Below are positions 1,910-40,614 of a DNA stretch of 64,000 bases, in pieces (position 1 is the stretch's first letter; each line of letters opens with the position of its first letter). The notes beneath the pieces were generated by a model. That model was not told where the DNA came from and ran no database searches. It was given only the letters and a program-made list of their open reading frames with translations. Origin of the DNA: Bdellovibrionota bacterium (GTDB taxonomy: Bacteria; Bdellovibrionota_C; UBA2361; OMII01); assembly GCA_044360075.1 (NCBI GenBank), contig JBIKLA010000004.1, positions 51,034 to 115,033 on the forward strand. The letters are read 5' to 3'. The translations under genes and the position numbers were made by a program.

Positions 1910-3127
1910 TTGGAAGTTGTCATGTTCTCATCGTTCAAGCCCAATTCGTCGCTAAGCTCATCTTCGGCCCATGATGGCCTCAATTCGGCCGTTCAGGGGC
2001 TCCAGGGCGCAAGCCTCCCCCGTCTTGACCGCACTGTGGAGGTGCTCTCGGACGTTAGCAGACAGGGCCGCAAGTCTCTCGATTTCGTCATTAAGGCACT
2101 AGTCACATCGCCTGAGGTGCGGAGCTCCGTGCTTGCAGCGATCAACGAGCACCCATCGCTGCTAGAGTCTCCCAAGCGGCGTGCCGCCATCCTTGAGGCA
2201 TTAACCCCCTTCTCCGACGAAGGCGCGGTTTGCGAGCTGGCAGTCGTCTCGCTTGAGAGCCCCTACCTCAAGGCCTCGGCCCGAACGGTGTCGGCGGCTT
2301 GCGCAATTCTCAAGCCCGCACTCACCTCACTGGACGAAGAGGAGCCAGCCGTCCTCTTTCCCCTTCAGCTTGAGAGGCGAATTCTTAAAGTAGCGGCCCG
2401 GTACTCTCCGGGCGGCGGTGACACAGCCGCCGGAGCGGCGATCCTCCTGCTGCGCGAAACACCGCTTGGCACCCGCATGCAGGACAGCGTCCGCTCTCTT
2501 GCCCGCGACTGGTTCCTTGCTCGAAACCAAGGCAAGAACCCATGGCTTGCGCTCCTGAGCGAGATGCCCTCCAAGGAGAATGTTGCGTTCATCGCGTCGC
2601 TCGCCAGCGGCCGCTTGCCTGGCCCCGGTCTTGCCTCATTTCTGCGCTCCCTGGTCCGAATTCCGGTGACCTTCCATGAAGTCGCTATTACCAGCACTAT
2701 CGTCACCGTGGCCTCACGCCAGATCTGCGCCTACTTCAAGCTTCCTAAGGTCGTATCGAACGCTGCTATCGCCGCCCTCTCGGTCGGGCTCGTGGTCGGA
2801 AGCAGAAGCCTCGCCAATGCGTTCCAGGAGGACGCCATCAATAAGAGCCGCACGTGGGAGCGGGTTGAAGGCATTGCCCTGCTGTCGGCGATGCGCGCAG
2901 CGCTTGGTGACGATCCCTCTAGTGCTGCGCGCTTCTCGGTGCTCAGGATAGTCTCTGCGCTGGAGAAAGCCTCTCGCAGCCGTATGCAGCCGCCCTTCGT
3001 GCGGCAAGCAGCCACGATCGCCCTCTCCGGCGAGGTGCTCGACCCGGTTGATCTGTGGAACCAAACCGTTATTGCCGGCGACTTTGGTGAAGTGCTGCGC
3101 CAGAAGCATCAAGCAGTGCGTCTGTAA
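1910..3127 (+). CDS. hypothetical alpha-helical protein (TTG start, or ATG at 1922)
   Basis: Long ORF of 405 aa with protein-like composition and no recognisable motif. Confidence 0.45.
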   Translation: MEVVMFSSFKPNSSLSSSSAHDGLNSAVQGLQGASLPRLDRTVEVLSDVSRQGRKSLDFVIKALVTSPEVRSSVLAAINEHPSLLESPKRRAAILEALTPFSDEGAVCELAVVSLESPYLKASARTVSAACAILKPALTSLDEEEPAVLFPLQLERRILKVAARYSPGGGDTAAGAAILLLRETPLGTRMQDSVRSLARDWFLARNQGKNPWLALLSEMPSKENVAFIASLASGRLPGPGLASFLRSLVRIPVTFHEVAITSTIVTVASRQICAYFKLPKVVSNAAIAALSVGLVVGSRSLANAFQEDAINKSRTWERVEGIALLSAMRAALGDDPSSAARFSVLRIVSALEKASRSRMQPPFVRQAATIALSGEVLDPVDLWNQTVIAGDFGEVLRQKHQAVRL

Positions 3128-3164
3128 GTCCCCCTACGCGCGTCACTACGGGCATGCGTGAGAG

Positions 3165-3980
3165 CTACGGAGTATGCCGTCCCAATGAGGCTCTTAAGGC
3201 CTGCTGCAGAAGCAGCTGCTGCGCATAGCGCTGGGCCATCTCTCGCCGGTCGCGACTCTCATAAACCTCTTGATAGTCCTGGGTGGTAAGAGCTCCGAGA
3301 GCTGGTGCCCGAATGTCGCGCACTTGGTAGTCGAACCGCCGAAAGTCCTCCCATGGAAGGGCGATGAGGAGGTCCGCATTAAACCGCTCTGCCGTGTAGC
3401 CTTGCCTGGATGCGCACACGCCGGCCGTGCGGCAGCTCTTGTGCGGCTCAAGGCAATGCTCCCGAAGCGAGTCAGGGTCACCTGGTAGCGCCGCGCGGGG
3501 CGAATTTCGAATTCTATGATTAGAGCTCCAGCCGCCGTTCTGCGTCCGGCCGCCCATGTCGAACAGGATAATGCCCCCCGGCCCGGTTTGACGGCTCACG
3601 TCTTGAGCAAAATCCAATGCGTACCGCGAAAGCTCCATGAGGCCAAAGAGCTGAGCCTCGCTCCGCCGGCGCTGCAAGAAGGTAGCAACCGGAACCTGCG
3701 CGCTGCGTTGCTCAAGCATGCGGGAGAAATCCGCCTGGTCGACAGAGCACATCCCAAAATACACCAAGACCTCCCCCTGAATAACCGACAGAAGCTTGCC
3801 CTGATTCCACATGAAGACCTTGTGCAAAAGATCCACGCTGGTGTGTTTAAGCTCCTGGGCGGAGGGAAAGCGAAGGTCGGCGAGAGACGAAGCCCACTCG
3901 GGAATGGAACGGGCATCGTGCTTGGACTCTTCTCCTGCGGTGGGGAGGTTTTTTGACGGCTCTAATCGCGGCGCAAGCAT
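3165..3980 (-). CDS. hypothetical protein
   Basis: ORF of 271 aa. A competing + strand ORF, 3516-3956, is shorter. No motif recognised. Confidence 0.4.
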   Translation of the reverse strand: MLAPRLEPSKNLPTAGEESKHDARSIPEWASSLADLRFPSAQELKHTSVDLLHKVFMWNQGKLLSVIQGEVLVYFGMCSVDQADFSRMLEQRSAQVPVATFLQRRRSEAQLFGLMELSRYALDFAQDVSRQTGPGGIILFDMGGRTQNGGWSSNHRIRNSPRAALPGDPDSLREHCLEPHKSCRTAGVCASRQGYTAERFNADLLIALPWEDFRRFDYQVRDIRAPALGALTTQDYQEVYESRDRREMAQRYAQQLLLQQALRASLGRHTP

Positions 3981-4619: not shown

Positions 4620-7097
4620 CTACTTTTGGTCGATCTTGACCTCGATACGGCGGTTTTTCGCGAGCGCCTCAGTTGAGCCGCCCGAGTCGAGCGGCTGGTA
4701 CTCGCCGTAGCCGATCGCGGCAAGGCGGTGCGGGGGAATTCCCTGCTCAGTCAGGAACTTCACCACCGAGATCGCTCGAGCTGTCGAAAGCTCCCAGTTA
4801 GAGGGGAAGGCGGCGCTGCTGATCGGAAGCTTATCGGTGTGGCCCACGACGCTCAGAATCCAGTCAACATCCTTGGGGAATACCTTCTCCATCTCCTTTA
4901 AAGTTTCGGCGAACTTCATCAGCTCTTGCTTTCCGCCGTCCTGAAGGTCCGCCGATGCTGAGGCGAAAAAGACCTCGGACGCGAAGACAAAGCGGTCGCC
5001 AACGATGCGGATGTCCGGCCGGTTGCTCAGCACCTTCTTGAGCTTGCCGAAGAACTCCGAGCGATACTCTGCTAGCTCCTCTGCCTTCTTGATGAAGGCA
5101 AGGTTGAGCTTCTTGTTAAGGTCATCGATATTCTTGTCCTTCGCGAGACCTTTTGCCTTCTCCTTGTCGATATCAGCCATGAGGAGCCGCAGCTTCGCAT
5201 TGAGCTCGTCGACTTGCTCGCCGATAGCGAGCAGCTGGGCGCTGAGCTCCGCCTTTGACTTCTCGCTGCTTGAGAGCTTTTGCTCATTCGAGAGCAGGCT
5301 CGCGTCTATGCTTTTCTTCTCAGCGAGAAGGCGCTTGTTTTCCCTCTCCCTCTCAGCCAAGAGTACACGCAACGCCGCCAGTTCAGCGGCAAGCTCAAGC
5401 TTGCTTTTTTCGGCGTCTGAGAGCTTCTTCTCCTTCGCCGAGAGGCTGTCGTCGAGCTTTTTCTTTTCTTTGTCGAGCGATCCCGCCAACGCTTCCTTAA
5501 GCGCCAGTGCAGCCCTAAGGTCAGAAAGCTGGGTTGCCAGGTCCCGATTCTCCCTCTCAAGCGAGGCAAGCCTCTTCTCGTTGGCCGATAGGCTTGAGTC
5601 GAGCTTCTTGCGCTCTGAGCTGAGTGCACTCGACTCCTTCTCCTTATCCGCCAAGAGCGAGCGCAGCGCCGCGAGCTGCTTTTCCAGATCAACGTTTTCT
5701 TTTTCGACGATCTCCAGTTTAGCCTCCTTCGTGGCCAGGATGTCAGCGAGTTTCTTCTTGTCGCTGTCGAGAGACCCTGAGAGCTTCTCTTTCTCACTAA
5801 GCGCAAGGCGCAGGGCCGCAAGCTGGGCTGCCAGCTCAATCTTGTCATTCTCAAGATCAGAAAGCTTTTTCTCTTGGGCAGACAAGCTGGCATCGAGCTT
5901 CTTTTTTTCGCCGCCAAGCGAATCCGACACCTTCTCCTTTTCCGCTAGCGCAAGACGCAGCGCTGCCAGCTGTGCCGCAAGCTCAAGCTTGTCTCTATCA
6001 AGCTCAGCGAGCCTCTTCTCCCTTGCCGATAGACTGGCGTCGAGCTTCTTATTTTCTCCCCCAAGTGACTCGGACGCCTTCGCCTTCTCTGCAAGGGCGA
6101 GGCGGAGAGTCTCAAGCTGCGTTGCGAGGTCGAGCTTCTCCTTCTCAAGCTCGGAGAGCCTCTTCTCCTTTGCCGAAAGGCTTGTGTCGAGCTTCTTCTT
6201 TTCGCCCCCAAGCGCCTCAGAGACCTTCTCCTTCTCGGCCAGCACAGCCTTGAGCGCCGCAAGCTGTGCAGCCAGCTCCAAGGTTGCCTTCTCCTTCTCA
6301 GAGAGCTTCTTTTCGCTTGTCGAGAGGCTCTCAGCCAGCTTTTTCTTGTCTGCGTCGAGGGTCTTCGAGAGCGTTTCCTTTTGCAGGAGGGACGCCCTCA
6401 AGGCGGCTAGCTCCGCCGCAAGCTCACGCTGCGCTTTCTCGTTTTCAGAGAGCTTTTTCTCCCTGGCAGCAAGCTTCTCGCCGACCGATGTCTTTTCAGA
6501 TTCAAGGTTCATCGCGAACCTGGTCTTTGTTGATAGCAGCGCGTGCACCGCTCCAAGCTCCTTATCAAGCCGCTGCCTCTCCTTCTCAAGCTCCGAGAGC
6601 TTGGCCGTGGCCTGTGAGAGATCAGTGTCGAGGCGCTTGCGCTGAGCCTCTATGTCATCCAGAGCTCGCTCTTTCGCCCTGAGGGCCGTGCGGATTGAAA
6701 CGACCTCTTCATCGTTTTTCGCCATCTGTTCGGCGTTCTTGTGCATGAGCTCCTCAAGCTCGGCACTGCGGACCCGCGCTGCGTCTGCTGAAGACTTTTC
6801 GGAAGCAAGCGAGGTTGTGAGACTGCGGGCCTGTTGCTCAAACTCAGCTCCTTTTCTGCGGGCCTCCTCTGCCCCCTCTTTCTCGAGGGTAAGTGATGCC
6901 GAGAGCTGCTCAAGCTTCTGGCTCAATTCACCAAGCAAAATATCCTTGTCGTTGACGGCGCTCGACAGGTAGAACTGCGCCGCTACCATGACGAGAAGCA
7001 CGACCGCAATCATCATGAGCATCGACGACAGTGCGTCAACGTATCCTGGCCACACGTCGAAGTGTCGCCGCTTTCCACGCCGGGCTGCGTAGCTCAT
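4620..7097 (-). CDS. MotB/OmpA-family protein with a giant internal coiled-coil repeat region
   Basis: N-terminus DVWPGYVDALSSMLMMIAVVLLVM resembles the MotB plug/TM with an Asp at the TM entry. The C-terminus ...GHTDKLPISSAAFPSNWELSTARAISVVKFL...NRRIEVKI is an OmpA/MotB peptidoglycan-binding domain. About 430 aa of 49-aa heptad-like repeats lie in between. Confidence 0.8.
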   Translation of the reverse strand: MSYAARRGKRRHFDVWPGYVDALSSMLMMIAVVLLVMVAAQFYLSSAVNDKDILLGELSQKLEQLSASLTLEKEGAEEARRKGAEFEQQARSLTTSLASEKSSADAARVRSAELEELMHKNAEQMAKNDEEVVSIRTALRAKERALDDIEAQRKRLDTDLSQATAKLSELEKERQRLDKELGAVHALLSTKTRFAMNLESEKTSVGEKLAAREKKLSENEKAQRELAAELAALRASLLQKETLSKTLDADKKKLAESLSTSEKKLSEKEKATLELAAQLAALKAVLAEKEKVSEALGGEKKKLDTSLSAKEKRLSELEKEKLDLATQLETLRLALAEKAKASESLGGENKKLDASLSAREKRLAELDRDKLELAAQLAALRLALAEKEKVSDSLGGEKKKLDASLSAQEKKLSDLENDKIELAAQLAALRLALSEKEKLSGSLDSDKKKLADILATKEAKLEIVEKENVDLEKQLAALRSLLADKEKESSALSSERKKLDSSLSANEKRLASLERENRDLATQLSDLRAALALKEALAGSLDKEKKKLDDSLSAKEKKLSDAEKSKLELAAELAALRVLLAERERENKRLLAEKKSIDASLLSNEQKLSSSEKSKAELSAQLLAIGEQVDELNAKLRLLMADIDKEKAKGLAKDKNIDDLNKKLNLAFIKKAEELAEYRSEFFGKLKKVLSNRPDIRIVGDRFVFASEVFFASASADLQDGGKQELMKFAETLKEMEKVFPKDVDWILSVVGHTDKLPISSAAFPSNWELSTARAISVVKFLTEQGIPPHRLAAIGYGEYQPLDSGGSTEALAKNRRIEVKIDQK
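5180..6590 (-). repeat. about nine tandem 147-bp (49-aa) coding repeats inside the MotB-like gene
   Basis: Repeated protein unit LSAKEKRLSELEKEKLDLATQLETLRLALAEKAKASESLGGENKKLDAS with variants. Both-strand ORF shadows (Ser-rich + frame) are typical of such repeats. Confidence 0.7.
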
Positions 7098-12820: not shown

Positions 12821-14419
12821 TTATGCTGCGTTAGCGTGAGCCTGGGTGCTCTTGGCCTTCGCCGACGGGGCATGCGCCCCATTCGATGAGGTGCCCGGCG
12901 AAGCGGCCGTTCCCGCGATGAATTGCTCGACGAACGCGCCGATCGCCTTGTTGAGGCGCTCGGTGATGTCCTTGTCGAGCTCATTCTTCGTGCGAAGGTC
13001 GTTCATGAGCGCAGCCTGGTTCGAGAGCATATGGCGGTGAAGCGTCTCCTCGAACTCGCGAACCTGCGCCACGTCGAGCTTGTCTGTGAACCCGTTTGCA
13101 ACCGCGAAGATAGAGAGCACCTGAAGCTCTACTGGCATCGGCACGTTCTGGCCTTGCTTGAGGATCTCAACGAGGCGCGCACCCTTTGCAAGCTGTGCGC
13201 GGGTCGCTGCGTCGAGGTCCGAGCCGAACTGCGCGAAGGCCTGCTTCTCACGGTACTGGGCGAGATCAAGACGGAGCGTTCCGGCGATCTTTTTCATCGC
13301 CTTAACCTGCGCAGCTCCTCCTACACGGGACACCGAGAGGCCCACGTTAACTGCCGGGCGGATACCCGAGTTAAAGAGGTCGGCCTCAAGGAAGATCTGA
13401 CCGTCAGTGATCGAGATTACGTTTGTCGGGATGTACGCCGATACGTCACCTTCGAGGGTCTCGATAACCGGAAGGGCCGTAAGCGACCCGGCTCCGAGCT
13501 TGTCGCTCAGCTTCGCTGCGCGCTCAAGGAGCCGGCTGTGGAGGTAGAACACGTCGCCCGGATACGCCTCGCGGCCCGGTGGGCGGCGAAGGAGGAGCGA
13601 CACGCTGCGGTACGCCACTGCGTGCTTCGAGAGATCGTCGTAGATCACGAGGGCGTGCTTACCCTTGTGCATGAAGTACTCGCCCATCGTGCAGCCCGTG
13701 TATGGCGCGTAGAACGACATTGGTGCGGGCTCGGAAGCCGTGGCGGCAACGACGATGGTGTGATCCATCGCGCCGTGCTCCTTGAGGCGCTCAACCACCT
13801 GAACAACCGAGGAGCGCTTCTGGCCGATTGCAACGTAGATGCAGATAACTCCCGTGCCCTTCTGGTTGATGATCGTGTCGATGGCAACCGTGGTCTTGCC
13901 GGTCTTCTTGTCGCCGATGATAAGCTCGCGCTGCCCGCGGCCCACTGGCGTCATCGAGTCGATGGCCTTGAGGCCGGTCTGCATGGGCTCGTGAACCGAC
14001 TTACGACCAACGATGCCCGGAGCCTTTATCTCAAGGCGGCGGGTTTCGGTGGTCTTGATGTCACCAAGACCGTCGATTGGGTTTCCAAGGGCGTCAACCA
14101 CGCGGCCGATGAGCGCATCGCCGACCGGCACGCTGGCGATCTCGGCGGTGCGCTTGACGGTGTCGCCTTCTTTAATCGTGGACGTCTCGCCCATGACCAC
14201 GATACCGACGTTATCCTCCTCGAGGTTGAACGCCATGCCCTTTGTGCCGTTGGCAAACTCAACGATCTCTCCGAGGGCTACGCGTCCGAGTCCGTAGGCA
14301 CGGGCGATTCCATCTCCTACGCTCAAGACTGATCCGACTTCGGCAAGGTCTTGGTCACCGGAGGTGGCGCCGATCTTGTCCTTGATGATCCTGCTAATCT
14401 CATCTGCACGTATGTCCAT
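12821..14419 (-). CDS. atpA: ATP synthase F1 alpha subunit
   Basis: GDKKTGKT Walker A and a conserved alpha sequence. Confidence 0.97.
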
Positions 14420-16384: not shown

Positions 16385-17167
16385 TTAGGTGCCTGCCGGA
16401 GCCCTTGAGAAGAGGCTGGGAACGCCGGATATAGGCGAGCTTTCTGGGTCAGTGAAGGCTGGCTGCGGCGGCAGGACCCTGATGCCATGCACATAGTCAG
16501 CTTTAATCCTCCAGCCGCTCGTCGCGCAGGCGAGGGCGCTGCCGCCCATCAGGTCACGCCCGTCATTTGCACAGGTGTATGCCGCTAGCACGAGCGCCTG
16601 CTCAATAGCGGGAGCAGGCCGCATCCCCTTGTGGCTGAGGATCTCTTCCTGGGCCAGCCGAGACGCGCCGGTGGTGCCCCGTACCGCGATATCGATCTTA
16701 ATCTCGCGCGGCCGGGATTTCTCGCGCTCCCCTGCCCCACCGAACTTTGCGTACCACTCAAAATCCGGAGGAAATATTACGCCACGCGAGCTGAACCTGT
16801 GCGCAAAGTGCGCATTGAGCGCCCTCATCGCGTCGATGTCGCTGACCTCTGCCGGAATCGTAAGGTTCCACAATCGCGGCCTGAACAGCCCGGCGATGAA
16901 ACCCAGCGAATCCTGCCTGAGGGTCGAGAGTATGCGCTTGGCTGTGGCCAGTTGGCACTCGTCTGGCGGCAGGCTTCCAAGCAGCTCCTCATAGCCAGTC
17001 CCTTGCGTCTCAATCGAGCGATACCAACGCTCGGTGCCCACGAGCTCAACGGCGCGCGTGGCTGCTGCGAGCCGCTCCTGCGCAAGCTGAATCGCCTCCT
17101 GCAGCCGGGGGTCCTCGTCGGGCCGCTCGTGCGGCACGAGCGCCTCTTTTGGGGACAGATCCGTCAT
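16385..17167 (-). CDS. uncharacterised protein, paralog family P (copy 5, His of the AH motif replaced)
   Basis: LWNLTIPAEV...VIFPPDFEWY...ALVLAAYTCANDGRDLMGG aligns with P copies 1-4. Confidence 0.55.
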   Translation of the reverse strand: MTDLSPKEALVPHERPDEDPRLQEAIQLAQERLAAATRAVELVGTERWYRSIETQGTGYEELLGSLPPDECQLATAKRILSTLRQDSLGFIAGLFRPRLWNLTIPAEVSDIDAMRALNAHFAHRFSSRGVIFPPDFEWYAKFGGAGEREKSRPREIKIDIAVRGTTGASRLAQEEILSHKGMRPAPAIEQALVLAAYTCANDGRDLMGGSALACATSGWRIKADYVHGIRVLPPQPAFTDPESSPISGVPSLFSRAPAGT

Positions 17168-17276
17168 GAGGGATCGGTCGGCAGGAGCAGCCCCGGGCTT
17201 TATGATCTGGGGCGATTCTGGCCGGCTTTTGGGCAGAGTTAAGGCCGCGATTGCGCTCGAGAATACTTAAGCGCCC

Positions 17277-17760
17277 CTACCCCTGCCGCTTGAGCGCGCC
17301 AGCTGCATCGGCCCACCCCTCCGAAAGCTTCCACAGGCAGAAACTCAAGCCGCGGTGAAACTGAAGGAAATAGCTCGTCCCCGGGGCACGCACCGACTGC
17401 CCCTTCAGCACATCGGCCCCGTCGTGCGTGCATGCGGACGCCATGCACACCAGCGCCACTGCGGTCGTATCGGCCTGTCTCATGCCCCTCTGTGCCGCAG
17501 AAGCCAGCGCTGTACATCGTCCTGAACAAACATATTGGTCGCGTGCGGATGTCGCTCCCGAATTTTTGTGTCGAGCGCCACGAGTGCCTCAATATCCCCG
17601 ACACCTTCAGGGATCGTGAGGCGCCAGAACGGCTGCATGCGCAGGCGCGCGAAGAATCCGAGGCGCTCCTGCTCAAAGGAGCCCAAGATCTGGTCAGCGA
17701 TTATGAGATTGCGCTCCCCGCGCGGAAGCGCGCTGCGGCAGAGCCTCAAGAACGCTCTCC
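17277..17760 (-). pseudogene. frameshifted copy of paralog family P
   Basis: ORF 17480-17749 encodes LGFFARLRMQPFWRLTIPEGVGDIEAL (the middle region of the family). ORF 17277-17483, in another frame, encodes AVALVCMASACTHDGADVLKGQSVRAPG (the C-terminal core). Confidence 0.45.
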
Positions 17761-33213: not shown

Positions 33214-34266
33214 GTGCTGCGTAGGATAGCTCTCACCTTCCTCTACGTCTTCGTGCCGCTCGCCGTTGTCGGCGTGTCGTATCGTGCGCTGGAATACTAC
33301 CTTCTGGACCCTGCCAAGCCAGGGGACACCCAAACCGTGCCGATCGAAGTCACTCCAGAGAAGAGCTTCCGTGAGTTCGCAAAGGAGCTTGAGTCCAAGG
33401 GGCTCGTGCGGACGGCCCTGTCGCTGCGGGCCATCGCCCGATTCAAGGAGCTCGACAAGGACCTCAAGGCTGGAGAGTACGAACTATCTCCGTCGATGAC
33501 CCCTGAAGAGATTCTCGCAAAGATCGTTCGGGGCGAGATGGTACTTCGGCGTGCCACCATCAAGGAGGGCACACGCGCTCTTGATATGGGCCCCCTCTTT
33601 GAGGCCGCCGGAATCACGACGGCTGCGGAATTCAACGCGGCGCTCTCCGACCAGGAGCTCATAAAACAGCTCAACGTGCCGGCGGCGTCTTTTGAGGGGT
33701 ACCTCTTCCCCGAGACGTACCAATTTCCCCGCAACACCCCTGCAAGAAAGGTCATCACCGCAATGAAGGGGCAGTTTGACTCCCACTGGTCGCCCGAATG
33801 GGAGGATCGCCTCAGGCTTGTTGGTCGCTCAAGGCACGAGGTCGTGACTCTTGCCTCGATCGTCGAGAAAGAGTCTGGGAACGTCGATGAGCAGCCGAAA
33901 ATAGCGGGTGTTTTCTTCAACCGCCTGCAGCTAGGGATGAAGCTCCAGGCAGACCCGACAGTTATCTACGGGATCGAAAACTTCAACGGAAACATAACAA
34001 AGGAAGATCTGCAGCGCCCGACGCCGTACAACACCTACGTCATCCCTGGTCTCCCTCCTGGGCCGATATCGAACCCAGGCCGCAGTGCGCTCAGCGCAAC
34101 GCTTTTTCCAGAGCGGTCCAGCTATCTCTACTTCGTCGGAAACGGAAAGGGCCGTCACGTCTTCTCTGATACACTCTTTGACCACAACAATGCGGTGAAC
34201 GAGTTCCAGCGCGGCGGCGGCGCTTCGGCACCAACCGAGGCCCCCACCTCCACCCCGGTTCCGTAG
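33214..34266 (+). CDS. mltG: endolytic murein transglycosylase MltG (YceG-like)
   Basis: N-terminal TM and a YceG domain (AGEYEL..., conserved catalytic-region motifs). Confidence 0.88.
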   Translation: MLRRIALTFLYVFVPLAVVGVSYRALEYYLLDPAKPGDTQTVPIEVTPEKSFREFAKELESKGLVRTALSLRAIARFKELDKDLKAGEYELSPSMTPEEILAKIVRGEMVLRRATIKEGTRALDMGPLFEAAGITTAAEFNAALSDQELIKQLNVPAASFEGYLFPETYQFPRNTPARKVITAMKGQFDSHWSPEWEDRLRLVGRSRHEVVTLASIVEKESGNVDEQPKIAGVFFNRLQLGMKLQADPTVIYGIENFNGNITKEDLQRPTPYNTYVIPGLPPGPISNPGRSALSATLFPERSSYLYFVGNGKGRHVFSDTLFDHNNAVNEFQRGGGASAPTEAPTSTPVP

Positions 34267-34273
34267 CGCAGAT

Positions 34274-36442
34274 ATGGAGCATCCAATCTCCAAGCTGCTA
34301 CTTGATGTCATGGCGCGCGAAACGCGCAACCGCAGAATCGCGCTCGTACTGATCGGCGCTACAGCCACGTGCGGCGCCGCCGTCATCGCAGTTTCCGTCG
34401 CCCTCTACCCACCAGGCATCGCTCTCGGCGCCTGCGCGCTCGTTGTGGCCTGCCTCGCCGCAGTCTTTAGGGACACCGTCCGACCCCTCTCTGTTTCTGC
34501 CGCTGAGGCGGCGCTCCTCCTCGACAGGACCCTCCCAACCGGCGATCGAGTCGGCGCGCTCTTGCACCTTCAGGCTTCCACCGACCAGGGCGGCGGGCCA
34601 CATGCCCAGCTTATCGCCCACCAGCTCTCAGCCATCCTTGTGTCGGCCCCGCCCGCGCAAGAGATAGCCCCTCTCACGCTCTCGCCGTCCGAGCGCCGGG
34701 CGCGCATCCTGACCCCCCTTCTTGCTGCGGTCTTCCTGCTGCTTGTCACCTTCCGTCCGGTGCCGCCCCAGTTCGCAATAGCCGACAACATCGAATCGAT
34801 CGTCTCAGAAAACCCGTCACTGCCCGCGCCGTTGCGAGAGCAGGCTCTCAATCTCGTCGAGGCCATACGGGAAGCCCCTCAGAACGTTGAGCAGCTGCGA
34901 GATGAGCTTAATCGCACGCGCGACGAGGTTTCACAGGCGCTGAGCGAAATAGGCGGGCGCGGTGATGACGTTGATACCATTCTCAAAAATGAGCAGGCCT
35001 CGCGGCCAGCCCGTAACGTTCCGCAGCAACCGGCTTCCTCAAAGGGCCAGCCTCCCACGCCGACACCGAAACCGAAGGTGCCTTCAGCGCAGCGCCAGGA
35101 GCAGCAGAAGCAGCCATCTGCGCTGGAGGACCGCAGCAACGATACGACGGGCGGGAAGCCGCCGCCGCAAGACAACAGCGAAAGCTCCCAATCGAGCGGC
35201 GACAAACAACAGAATGAGAAGCAGGGCGAACAGGGTGGCTCCGGATCGGGGGCACCCAAGGAAGATTCGGGCAACAGCAACAAAGATGGCGGCTCAAGGA
35301 GCGAGCAGGGGACAGAGGAGAAGGAGTCGCAAGGAGGCGGCGGTTCCCAATCTGGCGACGGAGAGCAGTCCGCCTCGGGCGATTCGCAGCAGGAGCAGCA
35401 AGGCGGAGGTTCACAGGGCCAAGGCTCACAGGGCGAAGGCTCGGGTGACGGCAAGGGCAAGGGCGGACAGAAACCTGGCACCGATGAAAGCAAGGGCGAG
35501 GGGCAAGGGCAGGGAGATGGCGCCTCTCAAGGCAGCGGCTCTGGCGGCAAGGAGGGCGGAGAGAAAAAACCTGGAGGCTCTCGCTCGGAGCGCGGCGAGC
35601 AGGGAAGCGAAAGTAGCTCCTCGCAGGGCGGCGAGAGCGGCTCTCAGGGCCAGTCCCAGGGCTCAGGGCGTGCAGCTAAGGGAGATTCATCTCAACAGGA
35701 CCTTGAGAAGCTCAGCAGCGCACTCAACCAGCTAGAGCAGCAACTCGACCAGGAGCAGCAAAAAGAGCAGGGAGAGGGCTCATCTTCTGCCGGCACCCAG
35801 AAGGAGCAGAAGCAGCAGGGAAAAGAAGGGCAGGGCAAATCACAGCCCCAGGGTGACAAAAGTGGCGAGAAGGGAGCAGGGGCACAAAGCTCAACCCGTT
35901 CCCAATCCGATACGCAGAACCAGAAGGGCTCTGGCGAGCAAAGTGGAGAGAGCCGCTCAAAGAAAGAGGGGCAGGGCAACACCAAGGACGCACAGAGCAG
36001 CGCCCAACAAGGCAGCCCTACCGAGCAAAAAAAAGATGATGGGGTAGGGGACGAGGCTACCTCACAGAAAGGACAGCCATCTAACAGCGACAAGCCGCAG
36101 GAGAGCCCGGAGTCTTCAAGCAAGAAAGATGGCAAGCGCGACAGTTCCGGCGATCGCTCTGCGATGCCCGATCGCAACGCGCCGCCGAAGGAAGGCGGCT
36201 TCTCAGACCGAGACCCCGGACCAGGGCTTGGGGCGAACCAGTCCTTCAACGAGTCAAAGATTGAGGCCCGCGAGGAACAGGTCGACCAGCGATTTACCGG
36301 CGGGGACTCGAGCCTTGAGAAGAGCTCTCAGGAGGCCCAGGCTAAGACGTCGATTGAGGACTTAACGATCGCAAAGCCCAAGAGCTCCGTGCAGCGCGGT
36401 GAGCAGCCGATACCCCTCGAGTACCGCGATCTACTAAAGTAA
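34274..36442 (+). CDS. membrane-anchored protein with ~500-aa intrinsically disordered G/S/Q/E/K-rich tail
   Basis: Two to three N-terminal TM helices followed by extreme low-complexity sequence. It ends ...GEQPIPLEYRDLLK. Confidence 0.6.
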   Translation: MEHPISKLLLDVMARETRNRRIALVLIGATATCGAAVIAVSVALYPPGIALGACALVVACLAAVFRDTVRPLSVSAAEAALLLDRTLPTGDRVGALLHLQASTDQGGGPHAQLIAHQLSAILVSAPPAQEIAPLTLSPSERRARILTPLLAAVFLLLVTFRPVPPQFAIADNIESIVSENPSLPAPLREQALNLVEAIREAPQNVEQLRDELNRTRDEVSQALSEIGGRGDDVDTILKNEQASRPARNVPQQPASSKGQPPTPTPKPKVPSAQRQEQQKQPSALEDRSNDTTGGKPPPQDNSESSQSSGDKQQNEKQGEQGGSGSGAPKEDSGNSNKDGGSRSEQGTEEKESQGGGGSQSGDGEQSASGDSQQEQQGGGSQGQGSQGEGSGDGKGKGGQKPGTDESKGEGQGQGDGASQGSGSGGKEGGEKKPGGSRSERGEQGSESSSSQGGESGSQGQSQGSGRAAKGDSSQQDLEKLSSALNQLEQQLDQEQQKEQGEGSSSAGTQKEQKQQGKEGQGKSQPQGDKSGEKGAGAQSSTRSQSDTQNQKGSGEQSGESRSKKEGQGNTKDAQSSAQQGSPTEQKKDDGVGDEATSQKGQPSNSDKPQESPESSSKKDGKRDSSGDRSAMPDRNAPPKEGGFSDRDPGPGLGANQSFNESKIEAREEQVDQRFTGGDSSLEKSSQEAQAKTSIEDLTIAKPKSSVQRGEQPIPLEYRDLLK

Positions 36443-36513
36443 TTGCGCTCTCTTCGTTGACTGGTCGAGGCAGGTCCGATACCGCCACGGGATGTCTGAT
36501 GCTCGAGCTTGAG
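36361..36513 (+). repeat. direct repeat copy A (covers last 27 codons of 34274-36442 gene plus 68 bp downstream)
   Basis: About 90% identical to 39312-39456. Confidence 0.75.
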
Positions 36514-37299
36514 CAGAACTAGAAGCTCAAAAGGTATGGGTGGGAGTTGTCCCCGCTGGCCCACGTCTCATGGGAATCTCTCACAAGCCTGCCGTGCGAT
36601 GGGGCGTGAATGTTTCTCCCCCGTAGCCGGGCTACAAGGGAAGGGAAAAAGGGAAAAGGTAAAGGGAATTCAGCTCGCCGTTCACCGCCGAGTGGTCGGC
36701 TTGCAACTCAGTGCCGGAGGTACATCAAAAATGGGGGGCCACAGAGGACGCAGAGGTCCACAATGGAACATCTACTTGTGAGTAACGCGCTACCCGTATT
36801 CTACGGCACCATTCTACTGCTGCGCATCTCGCGACTTATCACTTTTGCATGGGGTTTCTCGATTTAGCTCTCATGCTGAGGCTTGAGGCGTTCCGCTTGA
36901 GTCTTCTGGACTTCGTTTCTCAAGTCCCCGTCACTACTAGTGAGAAAATACTCGCCGGCCCGTATTTCTATTCTAGCCTGACGTGCTTCATGGCTGTGCG
37001 CTCATTAGGATTCGTGTATCTCCGACACAGTAGATTCCTTAGATGCCCCACAGATGTTCTACTTTTAGATCTCTCCGACGGAGCGGCGCTTGGCGCTCCC
37101 GAAGCCCCACCCCTATGCATCACCCCTCCCCAGACGGAAGCTGCCCTTACAATTATTGGGGAAAGCCACTGTCTTGACACCCCTCACCCCCTACACTACA
37201 AGCCATTGAAAAGGGGGGGATACACCTCGCCCTCAAAGGCTCGGGCAAGGCGAATCACCGAGTCCCTACATTTGTAATCGGTCGAGGAGAATAATTACC

Positions 37300-37836
37300 A
37301 TGAAAAAAGTCGTCCTTGTTGTATCCACGTTGATGCTGTCTTGGAGTGCGATGTGCCAGGCTGAAGAGAAAGAAATTCTCATGCCTGCCATTGCGGTGTC
37401 GGTCTCTGATGCAAAGGAGCTGCGCGAGGTGAATAAGCTGCTGAAACAGGAGCAGGTCCTGCAAGAGAAGATCATGGCGAAGGAGGGATTGACGCATGTT
37501 CAGCCCGAGCTGCCAAAGTACAACGTGATTAGCGACAACAGTGTGCGCGCGCTACTCAGCCAACTTGACTACACGAACCTTGCGCTCAAGCTTGGGGCAC
37601 CTCTTCCTGCTCGGCCAGATCTGCCAAGCGGAACTCCCTTTGAGAACAACCGCTTCTTGCACGCCTACAACAACCTCATTCTGCGCAGCATCGCCCAGCA
37701 CCTTGGGCTACCGGTTCCAGCCAAGCCCGACCTCTCTGGGAAGGATAACGTTGAGGATCAGTGCTACGCCTTAGTGCGCGAGAACAAGGACGTTCTGCGC
37801 AGCATTGGCGTGAAGCGAGGATCGATAACTCGCTAA
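37300..37836 (+). CDS. secreted hypothetical protein (lower GC than surroundings)
   Basis: Signal peptide MKKVVLVVSTLMLSWSAMCQA. GC is noticeably lower by eye (many A/T third positions). Confidence 0.55.
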   Translation: MKKVVLVVSTLMLSWSAMCQAEEKEILMPAIAVSVSDAKELREVNKLLKQEQVLQEKIMAKEGLTHVQPELPKYNVISDNSVRALLSQLDYTNLALKLGAPLPARPDLPSGTPFENNRFLHAYNNLILRSIAQHLGLPVPAKPDLSGKDNVEDQCYALVRENKDVLRSIGVKRGSITR

Positions 37837-37837
37837 A

Positions 37838-39067
37838 GTGCCAACTCTAAACGAAGAGGTGTTCGGTAGCATCGCTGCCCTATGCGCGTATGCTGCCGAA
37901 CACAGCCCTTTTTATGCCCGCACCCTTCGTCCTGTGCGGAGCTGGGACGACTTTTACTCGCTTCCGATCTTAACCGGCGATGACCTCCGACGGCACGTCA
38001 ACGCAGACGGCACCGGAGATCTCCTCACCGGACCCACCCGCGGCTCGCTAGTCGTCAGCACATCAGCCACGAGCGGGGCGCGGAAGATTGTTCATCGTGA
38101 GTTCGCCGACCAGCATCGCGTTTCGGAGGGGCTTGCGATGGCGATGCGGCTCGCTGGATTCACGGCGGATGACCGCATAGCAAACATCTTTCCCCCCGGC
38201 GGTCTCTTGGCCGCTTGGATTGGGGCGCATGAGGCTATTGAGAAGCTCGGTGCAACGCTCCTTCCCCTTGGGACGACGCTGCCTCTTGATGTTGATGAGC
38301 AGGTGAAGCTCCTCACCTGCTTGCGCCCCACAGCTATTATCAGTGCGCCCTCAACGCTGGTGCGACTGATAGAGGGCGGGCTGCCTCCGATTCCCTCCGT
38401 GCTGTGCGGCGGCGAGACGCTCTTTCCTGAGACGCGGGCCTTTATGGAGAAGGCGCTTGGGGCTGAGATCGCACTCGTGTATGGGAACGTAGAGTGCGGC
38501 ACGCTTGGGGTGCAGTGTGAGGCGCTCCGTCGGACGCAGCGGTATCATGTTCTCACGCGAGATGTTTTTATTGAGATCGTCGACCCGGTAAGTGGCATGC
38601 CCGCCAACGAGGGAGAGATCCTCGTCACACACTTACACCGGCGTATACAGCCGCTCATCCGCTACCACGTGGGAGACCGGGTGCGTCGCGTTGATTCTCC
38701 ATGCGGCTGCGGCCTTGCGCTCCCCGTAATTGAACTAGAGGGGCGGGTTGAGGAACTTGAGGTAGTCATTGGCGATGTTTCTTTGAGTGCTGACCAAGTG
38801 GTGGCTGCTGTCCGTGATGTGCCGGGGATCGGTGAACGGTTCCAGATGCGCGTTCAGTGTCTTAACAAAGGGGACCAAGTTAAGATCCTATTTGAGGGGG
38901 AAGGGGTGTCGGCTGAGACGGTGCGCGCTGCGCTGCTGGGGAGGGAGCCAGCGCTTCGTGCGCTTGAAGACGGAGGCGCCCTGGTCATCGAAGTAGTCAA
39001 GCGGGGCGCAATCCCCACCACCCTCGCGGGGAAGACGCCACGAATTGTGGATGAGCGCTTGGGCTAA
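37838..39067 (+). CDS. PaaK-like adenylate-forming enzyme (phenylacetate-CoA ligase / F390 synthetase family)
   Basis: SGTTGKP-like AMP-binding motif region (STSATSGARK), YGNVECG and overall PaaK architecture of about 410 aa. Confidence 0.7.
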   Translation: MPTLNEEVFGSIAALCAYAAEHSPFYARTLRPVRSWDDFYSLPILTGDDLRRHVNADGTGDLLTGPTRGSLVVSTSATSGARKIVHREFADQHRVSEGLAMAMRLAGFTADDRIANIFPPGGLLAAWIGAHEAIEKLGATLLPLGTTLPLDVDEQVKLLTCLRPTAIISAPSTLVRLIEGGLPPIPSVLCGGETLFPETRAFMEKALGAEIALVYGNVECGTLGVQCEALRRTQRYHVLTRDVFIEIVDPVSGMPANEGEILVTHLHRRIQPLIRYHVGDRVRRVDSPCGCGLALPVIELEGRVEELEVVIGDVSLSADQVVAAVRDVPGIGERFQMRVQCLNKGDQVKILFEGEGVSAETVRAALLGREPALRALEDGGALVIEVVKRGAIPTTLAGKTPRIVDERLG

Positions 39068-39311
39068 GAGACATAAAAGACAGGTAGTGCGTTCATCTCT
39101 GGTGTAGATGGTGCATGGCGTCTCCGTTGCTGCGCTCTTAAGAGAGCTTTCACTCTAGGAGGGTGGAGAAGTGTTGTGGGGTTGTAGCACCGCACCAAAG
39201 GGTTTCACCAAAGGGTTTTTAGGGAGATAACCCGCACCAGGGGGGTGACGTGTGGCCCTGTACCGGAATAGCAACCCCGAATTAGCAAAAGTGACCCCCC
39301 ACTCCTCAAGT

Positions 39312-39456
39312 CTTAACGATCGCAAAGCTCCGTGTAACGCGGTGAGCAGCCGATACCACTCGAGTACCGCGATCTTCTAAAGTAATTACGCTCTCTTCGT
39401 TGACCGCTCGAGGCAGGTCCGATGCCGCCACGGGATGCTTGATGCTCGAGCCTTGA
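39312..39456 (+). repeat. direct repeat copy B (degenerate remnant of gene 3' end; 8-bp deletion creates a stop)
   Basis: CTTAACGATCGCAAAG...GAGTACCGCGATCTTCTAAAGTAATTACGCTCTCTTCGTTGAC... matches copy A. Confidence 0.75.
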
Positions 39457-39600
39457 TTTCGTCTACGAGGAGCCTGATTAAAATGGCTGGCTCTCATCCT
39501 TAATCGATATGAACCGCGGCGCACGGCCGATCAACCGACCGTTGCGACACCGCAGCCGGCAAAGTAGATTGATCTGGTACTACAACTCCCAGAGCTCCCT

Positions 39601-40614
39601 ATGACCGACCTTGATATCCGAGACGCTGCCGCCCTCGACAGAGCGATGGGTGACTTCCAATCGTCGTTTGCCAAGATAGAACAAGAGGTCGCTAAGTCAA
39701 TCGTCGGCATGCACGACATAGTACGCGGAGTAGTTTCATCCGTTTGTGCTCGGGGGCACGTGCTCCTTGAGGGTGTTCCTGGCTTGGGGAAAACGCTCCT
39801 AGTGAAATCTATCGCCCAGACGCTCGGCCTCTCGTTTAAGCGCGTGCAGTTTACTCCAGACCTCATGCCCTCCGATGTAACGGGCACCCAGGTCCTTACT
39901 GATGACGCCAGCGGACAGCGGCGGTTTGTGTTCCGGCAGGGCCCCATCTTCGCCAACATCGTGCTCGCTGACGAGATCAACCGCGCCACGCCAAAAACTC
40001 AAAGCTCCCTTCTTGAGGCGATGGAGGAGCGCCAGGTGACAGTACTCGACCAGACCTATCCGCTCCCGCAGCCGTTTTTTGTCCTCGCCACGCAGAACCC
40101 CATAGAGAACGAGGGCACGTATCCCTTGCCCGAAGCGCAGCTCGATCGATTTCTCATGAAGCTCGTGGTCCCGGCACCCTCGGCCAAAGAGCTCAAGGAG
40201 ATCCTCACGCGAACTACCGGCACTTCATCGAGCGAGCTGCGTCCGGTGTTCCCACCCGACGAGGCGGGCGCATACATCGCGTCGATGCAGCGTATCGTCC
40301 GGCACGTCGTTGTGTCCGACCCGATGCACGAGGTCATCGTTCGGCTCATCTCGGCGCTCACACCCTCATCAGAGTTCGCAACGCCGAAGGTCAAGAAGTA
40401 TGCACGCTTTGGCCCAGGCCCGCGCGGGGCGCAGTCACTCGTCCTCGCCGCTAAGGTAAGCGCTCTTCTTGACCGCCGCATCAACCTCTCGTTTGAGGAC
40501 ATCAGGGGCGCCATTAAGCAGACGCTTCGCCACCGGCTAATCTTAAACTTCCAAGCTGAGGCCGACGGCGTAACCACCGATGACCTCATCGAGGAGGTTC
40601 GAAACGCAAAGTAG
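39601..40614 (+). CDS. MoxR-like AAA+ ATPase
   Basis: LLEGVPGLGKT Walker A and MoxR family features. Confidence 0.9.
   Translation: MTDLDIRDAAALDRAMGDFQSSFAKIEQEVAKSIVGMHDIVRGVVSSVCARGHVLLEGVPGLGKTLLVKSIAQTLGLSFKRVQFTPDLMPSDVTGTQVLTDDASGQRRFVFRQGPIFANIVLADEINRATPKTQSSLLEAMEERQVTVLDQTYPLPQPFFVLATQNPIENEGTYPLPEAQLDRFLMKLVVPAPSAKELKEILTRTTGTSSSELRPVFPPDEAGAYIASMQRIVRHVVVSDPMHEVIVRLISALTPSSEFATPKVKKYARFGPGPRGAQSLVLAAKVSALLDRRINLSFEDIRGAIKQTLRHRLILNFQAEADGVTTDDLIEEVRNAK

Follow-up and report, generated by a model that had tools for sequence, protein, structure and literature searches.

The closest parallel to the locus reported here is the integration of the cryptic prophage e14 (and of phage 21) into the 3' end of icd, which left the icdC pseudogene behind; this precedent is set out in PMC13626634, which cites Hill et al. 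1989. Our measurements in E. coli K-12 showed that the e14 repeat is 216 bp long with 87% identity, that 165 bp of it are the end of the icd coding sequence and the other 51 bp follow the stop codon, and that the icd and icdC copies have an 11-bp identical left edge. Two further groups of loci are relevant. Grounded or anchored genomic islets, the remnants of integrative elements whose integrase has been lost, have been reviewed for prophages (PMC6379469). In Rhs, CDI and T6SS effector loci, orphan 3' regions have been displaced by homology-facilitated illegitimate recombination (PMC5361080).

The locus studied is a 2.8-kb segment in a Bdellovibrionota genome. An earlier note had described it as bracketed by imperfect direct repeats of ~150 bp that duplicate the 3' end of a gene, and both alignment and BLAST upheld this description. 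The features are listed below, with positions counted from the start of the window, by which we mean the whole 64-kb stretch of DNA that was analyzed.

34274..36442, + strand, target long gene; 722 aa, orthologues share its tail and gene order, no Pfam or NCBIfam family
36361..36513, + strand, repeat copy A; working 3' end of the long gene (stop codon 36440-36442) and ~70 bp of 3' flank
36361..36374 (copy A) and 39312-39325 (copy B), + strand, 14-bp block CTTAACGATCGCAA; left edge of both copies, identical in all strains
36514..37169, no strand assigned, spacer 1; non-coding, 54% GC, ORFs without family match, no similarity to L062
36765..36941, + strand, non-coding element of ~130-170 bp; solo copy within spacer 1
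37170..39092, + strand, cassette core; sole part of the insert common to the closest relative, L062 (94.5% nucleotide identity)
37300..37836, + strand, cargo gene 1; 178 aa, N-terminal signal-like sequence, matches no known family
37838..39067, + strand, cargo gene 2; 409 aa, Pfam AMP-binding, matches PDB PaaK structures (E 5e-24)
39093..39311, no strand assigned, spacer 2; non-coding, no relatives found
39312..39457, + strand, repeat copy B; displaced, pseudo 3' end with an 8-bp deletion after the 14-mer in all strains
39458..39600, + strand, native intergenic region 5' of moxR; 39532-39600 aligns with the leader in front of moxR in relative L076
39601..40614, + strand, moxR (AAA_3 ATPase); directly after the long gene in relatives with an empty site

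The gapped alignment of the two copies (36361-36513 and 39312-39457) placed them on either side of the 2.8 kb, and BLAST gave 87.6% identity over 153 columns. A repeat search of the window identified an ungapped core of 126 nt (36383-36508 versus 39326-39451) at 92% identity. Both edges of the repeat were sharp, with unrelated DNA 5' of the left edges and 3' of the right edges. Two 35-nt probes from the repeat had matches at A and B only in the 64 kb, where shuffled sequences predicted none, and the pair was the sole long dispersed direct repeat in the window. A generic repeat family, which would have refuted the reading in the earlier note, was not what we found, there being just two copies in 64 kb.

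The same note had assigned to copy A the last 27 codons of the upstream gene plus flank, and to copy B a non-coding state caused by an 8-bp deletion. The alignment agreed on both counts. Copy A makes up the last ~27 codons of the ORF at 34274-36442 (...LTIAKPKSSVQRGEQPIPLEYRDLLK*) and ~70 bp past the stop codon. In copy B the reading frame is broken by the 8-bp deletion, which lies immediately 3' of the 14-mer common to both copies, and in this strain it also carries a CAG->TAA change. This second gene tail is better annotated as a pseudogene fragment than as a gene. The 14-bp block is a candidate crossover core, by analogy with the 11 identical bp at which the icd/icdC repeat of e14 begins on its left side. 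The non-coding tail of the repeat has the sequence pattern CGCTCTCTTCGTTGACNNNTCGAGGCAGGTCCGAT; it was considered as a terminator or structured RNA and rejected, based on folding z-scores of +0.56 and -0.57 and no Rfam match at E<=1. Xer-dependent integrating elements (IMEX) are flanked by 28-bp dif-like sites at the replication terminus, and inspection of the repeat by eye revealed no dif-like arm-spacer-arm motif.

The protein encoded by the long gene has an N-terminal membrane segment, followed by a long low-complexity region rich in Ser, Gly, Gln, Glu and Lys and a conserved C-terminal tail, ...EQPIPLEYRDLLK. This tail is supplied by copy A, and its IPLEY core and adjacent residues recurred in every orthologue examined. 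As a homology query the full-length protein gave five distant matches, the low-complexity region having swamped the candidates. Orthologues with the same tail and the same conserved gene order, RuvX-YceG-long gene-MoxR-DUF58-BatA-VWA, were found in L008, L009, L011, L063-L069, L076 and L079-L087. The N-terminal part of the gene at first seemed hypervariable (9.9% variable sites), which might have pointed to homeologous recombination, but a single in-frame deletion of 54 bp in strain L074 had produced this figure artificially.

The earlier note had proposed a check for empty sites, and these were present: moxR comes immediately after the long gene in L008, L009, L066 and L079-L081, at a distance of 53-239 bp. 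Because the two genes adjoin in these relatives, which are distant (YceG 43-68% identical), the gene order supports the view that the segment was inserted into an ancestral arrangement that lacked it. In L011, L063, L064, L067, L068, L069 and L076 different genes fill the same junction, and since these genes are unrelated, the junction between the long gene and moxR is a variable hotspot. A duplicated 3' end was seen at none of the further sites that are occupied in relatives, and a recombinase that regularly targets the long gene is therefore not evident. A tandem duplication of the long gene in L076, suggested by two 728-aa genes between YceG and MoxR, was rejected as their translations are unrelated and the equal lengths coincidental. 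Small palindromic elements were seen right after the stop codon of the long gene in L068 and L079.

Within the species the insert was fixed in all strains observed, and the species is present in the Lake Mendota and GROS21 metagenomes. The insert and both repeats were present in 13 of 13 same-species contigs with DNA (98-100% identical), and the cassette in 23 of 23 contigs read with an identical MoxR protein. The locus was identical in seven contigs from several samples, and strains at 1-2% divergence all had the insert. The segment was confined to strains of this species, rather than being shared by all relatives, an outcome that would have refuted the reading in the earlier note. An empty site would read GCAAAGCCCAAGAGCTCCGTG, ~120 nt and TTTCGTCTACGAGGAGCCTG. 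The junction pattern for an empty site was absent from the metagenome contigs of the same population, and no copy of the repeat on another element was found in the metagenome or viral collections. As a consequence of these two results, it is from anatomy that we infer the attL/attR status of the repeats proposed in the earlier note: the match to e14/icd stands, and the recombinase, the empty site in the population and the element-borne repeat that would complete it were not seen.

The two copies have had different histories among the strains. Copy A is intact, varying at one synonymous coding site and two flank sites, and copy B evolves like a pseudogene. The changes in its former coding part are strain-specific, with the TAA stop and CCA in the strain analyzed here and GAG and GAC in others. 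Polymorphism in copy B was found at 5 of 74 ex-coding sites versus 0 of 72 tail sites (Fisher p=0.058), and a tail without polymorphism is compatible with its being a functional native upstream region of moxR. At the common ancestor of the species, A and B differed by one synonymous change in 62 ex-coding nt versus five substitutions and one indel in the 68-nt tail, a contrast between coding part and tail that was not significant (p=0.21). The divergence was ~4% at that ancestor (~96% identical) and is ~10% in the tail at present. Polarizing A against B with outgroups failed, since these are too distant (YceG 43-68% identical) and their 3' flanks are unalignable with the repeat tail. The only closer relative found by YceG, P0086 (87% identical), is represented by a 2.8-kb contig that stops short of the junction.

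These comparisons bear on whether the duplication was made in place, either by a repair or replication accident (filling of two staggered nicks ~150 bp apart, or template switching) in which foreign DNA was captured or, as the earlier note had allowed, by a prior small tandem duplication with later insertions at the hotspot, exactly at the border of the copies. The copies would then have been identical initially and B would have decayed since. The ~96% identity at the species ancestor, with the ex-coding part one substitution and the deletion apart, and the fast decay of copy B are compatible with such an origin, if recent. A composite insert with small mobile debris is consistent with successive insertions, and the palindromic elements just past the stop codon in L068 and L079 would also fit. 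However, target duplications of ~150 bp are not known from any mechanism of insertion in bacteria, no relative had the duplication without the insert, and a two-step origin requires that an insertion struck the exact junction of the copies. In addition, the excess of changes in the tail over the single ex-coding substitution is better explained by divergence under coding constraint than by neutral decay of B, with the reservation that counts this small did not reach significance. We consider an origin in place unlikely.

The cargo was as the earlier note had read it, a signal-peptide protein, a PaaK-like enzyme and doubtful ORFs, based on searches of Pfam, PDB and the protein families. The 178-aa protein is highly conserved, with a mean identity of 80% over six homologues and dN/dS of 0.07-0.18, and its single-sequence AlphaFold model was mostly helical and of low confidence (pLDDT 56), too poor for a fold search. 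The 409-aa protein is a predicted adenylate-forming enzyme of the PaaK/F390-synthetase group, assigned as a superfamily member only; its dN/dS was 0.12-0.25. Its NCBIfam scores were all far under the equivalog cut-offs (TIGR02155, 83.8 bits against 646; NF041878, 107 against 700; DVU1553_fam, 114 against 300), and it did not reach equivalog status as a PaaK phenylacetate-CoA ligase. Together, the two genes are a conserved module under purifying selection. The pair was found in at least four unrelated contexts among relatives, its homologues occur in the same clade only, and no links of the cargo to phages, plasmids or defence were found. The cargo is to be seen as a pair that moves horizontally and is under selection.

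The insert as a whole is composite rather than one unit. Of its 2.8 kb, the closest copy of the cassette, in L062, has just the 1.9 kb at 37170-39092 in common with it, and the flanks there are unrelated to those here. A TTGACA hexamer at 37174, at the start of the cassette core, is a putative promoter. About 0.9 kb of the insert is non-coding, with ORFs that have no match in Pfam, NCBIfam or PHROGs. Spacer 1, which starts with AGCAGAACTAGAAGCTCAAAAGG, is the most polymorphic part of the locus within the species (3.5% variable sites), and spacer 2 ends with ...CCCCCCACTCCTCAAGT. The element at 36765-36941 also occurs in L056, as an inverted pair beside an IS91-family transposase, and in DNA of a Bdellovibrio plasmid rich in insertion sequences and integrases; no additional copies were found in ~1 Mb of loci. 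We read this element as mobile-DNA debris. Its assignment as an insertion-sequence end was rejected: an intact IS66 is present in the Bdellovibrio plasmid, and the element is found ~110 bp beyond the 25-bp inverted repeats that bound it.

The lower GC content claimed by the earlier note was weakly apparent, the insert having 56.9% where the window averages 59.5%, which places it at the 7th percentile among stretches of 2.8 kb. This dip is due to the non-coding parts and the small gene (54%), and the claim does not extend to the ligase gene, which at 60.7% is host-like. GC3 of the cargo was 0.65-0.67 versus 0.69-0.78 in the neighboring genes.

This near-host composition, together with homologues in the same clade only, points to a relative as the donor, and raises the possibility that host recombination, unaided by any site-specific enzyme, brought the segment in from another bacterium of the group, from a donor that had spacer, cassette and spacer ~70 bp past its own long gene. 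One route would be a RecA-dependent single crossover of a circularized fragment via ~150 bp of 92-96% homology. The other would be homology-facilitated illegitimate recombination, with the left end anchored in the homologous long gene and an illegitimate join on the right, 27 codons ahead of the stop codon of the recipient, leaving the recipient 3' end as B. A hotspot that in many relatives has varied contents and no duplication suggests exchange via conserved flanks. The A-B divergence (~4% at the ancestor, ~10% in the tail today) is of the same order as the dS of the cassette against L062 (0.10-0.18), and the lack of a recombinase would be expected. Yet no donor with the cassette beside the long gene was found, the closest copies (L062 and L061) having unrelated flanks, and the original studies of the illegitimate route reportedly yielded deletion of recipient DNA, not duplication. 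A circular fragment of exactly such content needs an additional unexplained step, and the anatomical match to e14/icd becomes a coincidence. We regard import by host recombination as possible but rather unlikely.

Neither the insert, nor the ~10 kb around it, nor the 64-kb window as a whole had an integrase, excisionase, transposase or phage gene, in keeping with the earlier note, which had recognized no integrase. The insert ORFs had no match to Pfam, NCBIfam or PHROGs other than AMP-binding, and phmmer searches with one integrase and one IS91 transposase gave nothing in the window. With lengths of 656 and 219 bp, neither spacer has room for such a gene to be overlooked. Local alignment of the insert ends for terminal inverted repeats was no better than for shuffled sequences (138 of 300 shuffles had at least the same score), and the repeat search of the window gave no terminal pair either. 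IS91 and ISCR units have an HUH Y2 transposase, oriIS and terIS ends, a GTTC or CTTG target and no target duplication. No Y2_Tnp was found in the insert or window, and the IS91 mechanism does not make a 150-bp duplication. The sole links to IS91 were that copy A has CTTG as its right edge and that the cassette of L056 has an IS91-family gene nearby.

These two links are among the points in favor of a non-autonomous element that is still mobile, with a recombinase elsewhere in the genome acting in trans and A and B as working attL and attR. The two-gene cassette does vary in its location from one related genome to another, the L056 copy is situated upstream of the IS91-family transposase gene, and the CTTG that ends copy A is an IS91-family target tetranucleotide, a weak indication. 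However, there was no empty site in the metagenomes, the locus was invariant in seven contigs from several samples, and every strain had the insert. Disruptive changes accumulate in B, terminal inverted repeats are lacking, and copies of the cassette elsewhere have no flanking repeats. In addition, the ends of the shared cassette (37170 and 39092) are well within the repeats. We consider continuing mobility of this kind very improbable. The related proposal that the pair of secreted protein and PaaK-like ligase represents a novel type of small mobile cassette lacking an integrase, moved in trans by a recombinase of the chromosome and inserting via a mimic of the 3' end of a host gene, is to us equally a long shot; if true, it would explain why the pair is at a different locus in each related lineage.

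We favor a single integration at the hotspot between the long gene and moxR, of which the locus would be a fixed, decaying scar, and we put the chance of this at about even. Findings expected of an e14-type integration were the sharp bracketing 3'-end repeats, the frame restored by A, the non-functional B and the unoccupied site in distant relatives. Not found were a recombinase gene in the element or evidence of mobility in the metagenome contigs or any of the strains. In our scheme, a circular DNA would have brought along a version of the long-gene end (the last ~27 codons and ~70 bp) that had diverged slightly from the resident one. It would have recombined a single time with the chromosome; a site-specific integrase is the most likely agent, with an e14-like crossover in the 14-bp block at the left edge. 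The long gene would then read into the incoming copy A, and the resident 3' end, B, would have been moved 2.9 kb downstream together with the native moxR leader; it is by this scheme that we infer which copy was resident. A recombination module may have been lost later, or may never have been on the element, and the 8-bp deletion beside the putative core would have damaged the distal site. What remains would be a self-contained two-gene cassette under selection and non-coding debris. On our best reading, the insert goes back to an integration by single crossover, of which it is the grounded and decayed remnant, and it is an ordinary relic. The locus opens no new mechanism and answers no long-standing question. 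It is a clean, datable case of a conserved operon of an uncultured freshwater Bdellovibrionota gaining accessory genes at one intergenic hotspot, and it indicates that scars of the e14/icd type can persist without any recombinase.

Compared with the known systems, the locus resembles Rhs, CDI and T6SS loci in that a conserved upstream gene is the anchor, a new end comes in and the old downstream sequence is kept distally as an orphan. What is displaced there, however, is a set of variable toxin tips and immunity genes that form arrays, whereas here both ends encode the same peptide, the event would be single and the cargo is unrelated to the target. The likeness to grounded islets lies in the form of the remnant itself: target direct repeats remain, the recombination module is absent, one att site is damaged, and a few selected cargo genes stand amid non-coding debris in an insert fixed in the species. 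Unlike those islets, a former larger element is presumed here, with no detectable remnant of an integrase, phage or conjugation system. The e14 element differs in being 15.2 kb long, with intE, xisE and phage genes, and in that it still excises, whereas the insert here is 2.8 kb with no recombinase, phage genes or sign of excision. Also, icdC is an uninterrupted 165-bp frame, whereas 8 bp are missing from copy B at the putative core. In both cases, however, the gene runs into the insert and ends in the insert-proximal copy of its own 3' end, and the distal second copy is non-functional. The repeat extends past the stop codon (51 bp in e14, ~70 bp here), the identity is imperfect (87% and 88-92%, respectively), a perfect block lies at the left edge (11 and 14 bp), and the way in which coding part and tail have diverged between copies A and B is of the kind also seen between the icd end brought by the phage and the resident one.

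The segment at 36514–39311 was found in a repeat search of the window to be flanked on both sides by a direct repeat.

Copies of the direct repeat (extents from a gapped alignment)
36361–36513, copy A
39312–39457, copy B, with an 8-bp deletion

The ungapped core of the repeat (36383–36508 and 39326–39451) had an identity of 92%, and the 8 bp deleted from copy B lay right after a 14-mer, CTTAACGATCGCAA, common to both copies. Copy A consists of the end of a 722-aa ORF on the forward strand (34274–36442, the long gene), terminating in LTIAKPKSSVQRGEQPIPLEYRDLLK and a stop codon, plus approximately 70 bp. Copy B is out of frame, and in the window's strain also has a CAG codon changed to TAA. The repeat edges were abrupt on both sides, with the sequences outside having no similarity to each other. 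Repeat probes had two matches in 64 kb, copies A and B, where shuffles expect none, and the window contained no other long dispersed direct repeat. The repeat-bounded insert described in the earlier note is thus real, being defined by sharp-edged copies in two places only. Its lower GC held in direction (56.9%, versus 59.5% for the window), but the dip is modest and is due to the small cargo gene and the non-coding DNA. The note also considered a duplication followed by insertion; such a duplication in place during repair, with insertions later, would account for the paired copies in a way that we regard as improbable. Elsewhere in the window, an 825-aa ORF (4620–7097, reverse strand) contains 7–8 tandem 147-bp (49-codon) units at 5342–6600 that are 63–77% identical, an indication that its product is repetitive and probably coiled-coil.

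The window's proteins were matched exactly in an uncultured freshwater lineage (GCA_041447075.1 and many lake metagenomes), with the nearest genomes being Lake Mendota MAGs labelled Bdellovibrionota. The gene order RuvX-YceG-long gene-MoxR-DUF58-BatA-like-VWA was conserved. In several relatives (L-numbers denote loci or contigs) the long gene was followed directly by moxR, with a gap of 92 bp in L008, 53 bp in L009, ~70 bp in L066 and 239 bp in L079–L081. The empty sites sought in the earlier note therefore exist, and the segment is an insertion relative to this order. Other relatives carry unrelated genes at the same place, so the junction is a hotspot.

Occupants of the long gene/moxR junction in relatives
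L011, 626-aa secreted protein, PurM-like ORF and MgtE-like ORF (names from translations only)
L068, GNAT-like acetyltransferase ORF (name from translation)
L064 and L067, AAA ATPase ORF resembling an AAA_14/DUF4143 gene annotated elsewhere in L076
L063, 813-aa protein
L069, 262-aa protein
L076, two weakly similar, paralogous ~260-aa genes (13267–14052 and 16579–17376, both reverse strand) flanking a 728-aa acidic secreted protein

In none of these occupied-junction relatives was the gene tail duplicated. The 728-aa protein of L076 has Asp-rich repeats, and the first ~260-aa gene overlaps the long-gene stop by 8 bp. Small palindromic, MITE-like elements occur right after the long-gene stop in L068 (168–248) and L079 (13550–13730), and the spacer accordingly looks like a general landing pad; a related palindromic element lies beside the cassette in L062 (12–167). 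In one relative, contigs from two samples (L084, 13172–13280; L087, 6244–6352) both end exactly 108 bp past the long-gene stop. Assembly thus broke off twice at this hotspot, perhaps owing to a repeat or to heterogeneity among strains.

Within the species the insert was fixed. Seven contigs from different samples were 100% identical to the window within 34000–40000 wherever they overlapped (three being shorter than that span). The insert was also present in 6/6 further same-species contigs (97.7–98.9% identical), with both repeats wherever the contig extended that far, and the cassette lay upstream of an identical MoxR in all 23 contigs read. An empty-site pattern joining the left part of copy A to the right flank of copy B had no match in the metagenome collection. 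The length of the long gene differed within the species (704–722 aa): L074 has an in-frame 54-bp deletion (34624–34677) just past the membrane segment, and L070 and L073 a 6-bp indel (35450–35455) in the low-complexity region.

Alignment of the copies from all strains showed that every copy B has the 8-bp deletion. The TAA stop and a CCA codon were confined to the window's clone, and copy B in other strains had its own disruptive changes (GAT to GAG, TAC to GAC); because of this shared deletion and these differing changes, copy B behaves as a pseudogene. Variable sites numbered 5/74 in its ex-coding part, compared with 0.6–1.1% in the flanking genes and 3.5% in the spacer at 36514–37169 (spacer 1). 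Its tail had none among 72 nt (p=0.058 versus the ex-coding part), a hint that the tail still acts as part of the moxR leader. Divergence between A and B in the reconstructed ancestor of the species was ~4%. Besides the 8-bp deletion it consisted of a single synonymous change among 62 ex-coding nt and, in the 68-nt tail, of five substitutions and an indel; this coding-versus-tail contrast was non-significant (p=0.21). A non-autonomous element that is still mobile is very improbable, as the fixation and the decay of copy B speak against it.

The part of the insert held in common with the closest cassette relative was 37170–39092 only. The L062 cassette had 94.5% nucleotide identity with unrelated flanks, and that of L061 83%.

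Cargo genes, forward strand
37300–37836, 178-aa protein with an N-terminal signal-like sequence
37838–39067, 409-aa adenylate-forming enzyme of the PaaK/F390-synthetase group

The 178-aa protein had no match among the families or solved structures searched; its mean identity over six homologues was 80% and its dN/dS 0.07–0.18. On that mean it was rated better conserved than the ligase; identity to the window's copy across homologues was 57–93% for the small protein and 70–95% for the ligase. Two internal LG(A/L)P.PA.PDL...N..LRSI repeats were also present. The enzyme (dN/dS 0.12–0.25) matched PaaK structures at E 5e-24 and scored far under every NCBIfam equivalog cut-off; its close homologues (at least 68% identity) formed 19 clusters, with the next at 43% or less. 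The two genes were adjacent in every locus examined in differing surroundings (L052–55; L056–59, with an IS91-family transposase ~2.2 kb upstream; L060; L061; L062). No flanking repeats were found around the pair at its other loci, and searches of viral and plasmid collections gave no relatives of the two genes. As L062 homology begins at a TTGACA hexamer (37174), we infer that the two genes form a self-contained transcription unit, and they may be a functional one too, e.g., an enzyme with a secreted or modified partner.

The other ~0.9 kb of the insert is non-coding. It includes, within spacer 1, a solo non-coding element of ~130–170 bp.

Copies of the solo element
36765–36941, the window
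L056 (lake MAG contig), 3011–3216, reverse strand
L056, 4344–4462, forward strand
L088 (AP029178.1, plasmid pBdHAGR2), 4989–5125

Copies on lake MAG contigs and the Bdellovibrio plasmid were 77–84% identical, compared with 74% for the neighbouring coding cassette. In L056 the element is present as an inverted pair (115 nt, 94% identical) enclosing a split hydrolase pseudogene, with the IS91-family transposase gene 65 bp away; the plasmid copy is ~110 bp outside an intact IS66, within insertion-sequence- and integrase-rich DNA. The element may fold into a conserved hairpin, since one change is compensatory (CTTGAG..CTCAAG to CTCGAG..CTCGAG). Rfam had no match, and ~1 Mb of loci no further copies. 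The insert ends had no terminal inverted repeats; family searches detected no recombinase or phage-family match in the insert, and no recombinase in the window. What persists today is a fixed, decaying islet without an integrase, which keeps a selected two-gene cassette.

A single reciprocal crossover with a circular molecule that bears a copy of the target leaves a sharp-edged duplication around the insert, like the ~150-bp one here. By analogy with e14, the cryptic prophage in the icd 3′ end of E. coli K-12, copy A from the 14-mer rightwards would have been brought in by the element, and copy B would be the displaced resident end, with the native moxR leader still behind it; loss of the 8 bp next to the putative core would then have disabled the distal site. 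For A/B ancestry, the one closer relative found by YceG lies on a contig that ends short of the junction, and the other outgroups are too distant to polarise the copies. Site-specific integration is the best-supported reading, to which we give about an even chance; it is undemonstrated because there is no recombinase, no trace of excision (the empty-site pattern being unmatched) and no element-borne repeat copy in the metagenome or viral collections. Alternatively, host recombination could have imported the segment from a relative, by a Campbell-type crossover via the 150-bp homology or by homology-facilitated illegitimate recombination, the mechanism put forward for orphan 3′ regions (PMC5361080); we consider such an import unlikely but credible.

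The comparison with e14 (background in PMC13626634) supports site-specific integration in several respects. We measured the repeat formed by the icd 3′ end and icdC, the distal icd fragment, on either side of e14 as 216 bp, ungapped and 87% identical (88–92% here). It spans the final 165 bp of icd and continues for 51 bp past the stop, where here a gene tail and ~70 bp are duplicated. An identical block marks the left edge in both (14 bp here, 11 bp at the prophage left end), the proximal copy is intact, with the distal copy dead here, and the A/B differences are more closely spaced in the tail than in the coding part, where most are synonymous. This anatomy and the empty sites make the earlier note's interpretation largely reasonable. 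By this analogy, we read the locus as an insertion scar of the e14/icd type in an intergenic hotspot, a new example of an already known kind of feature.
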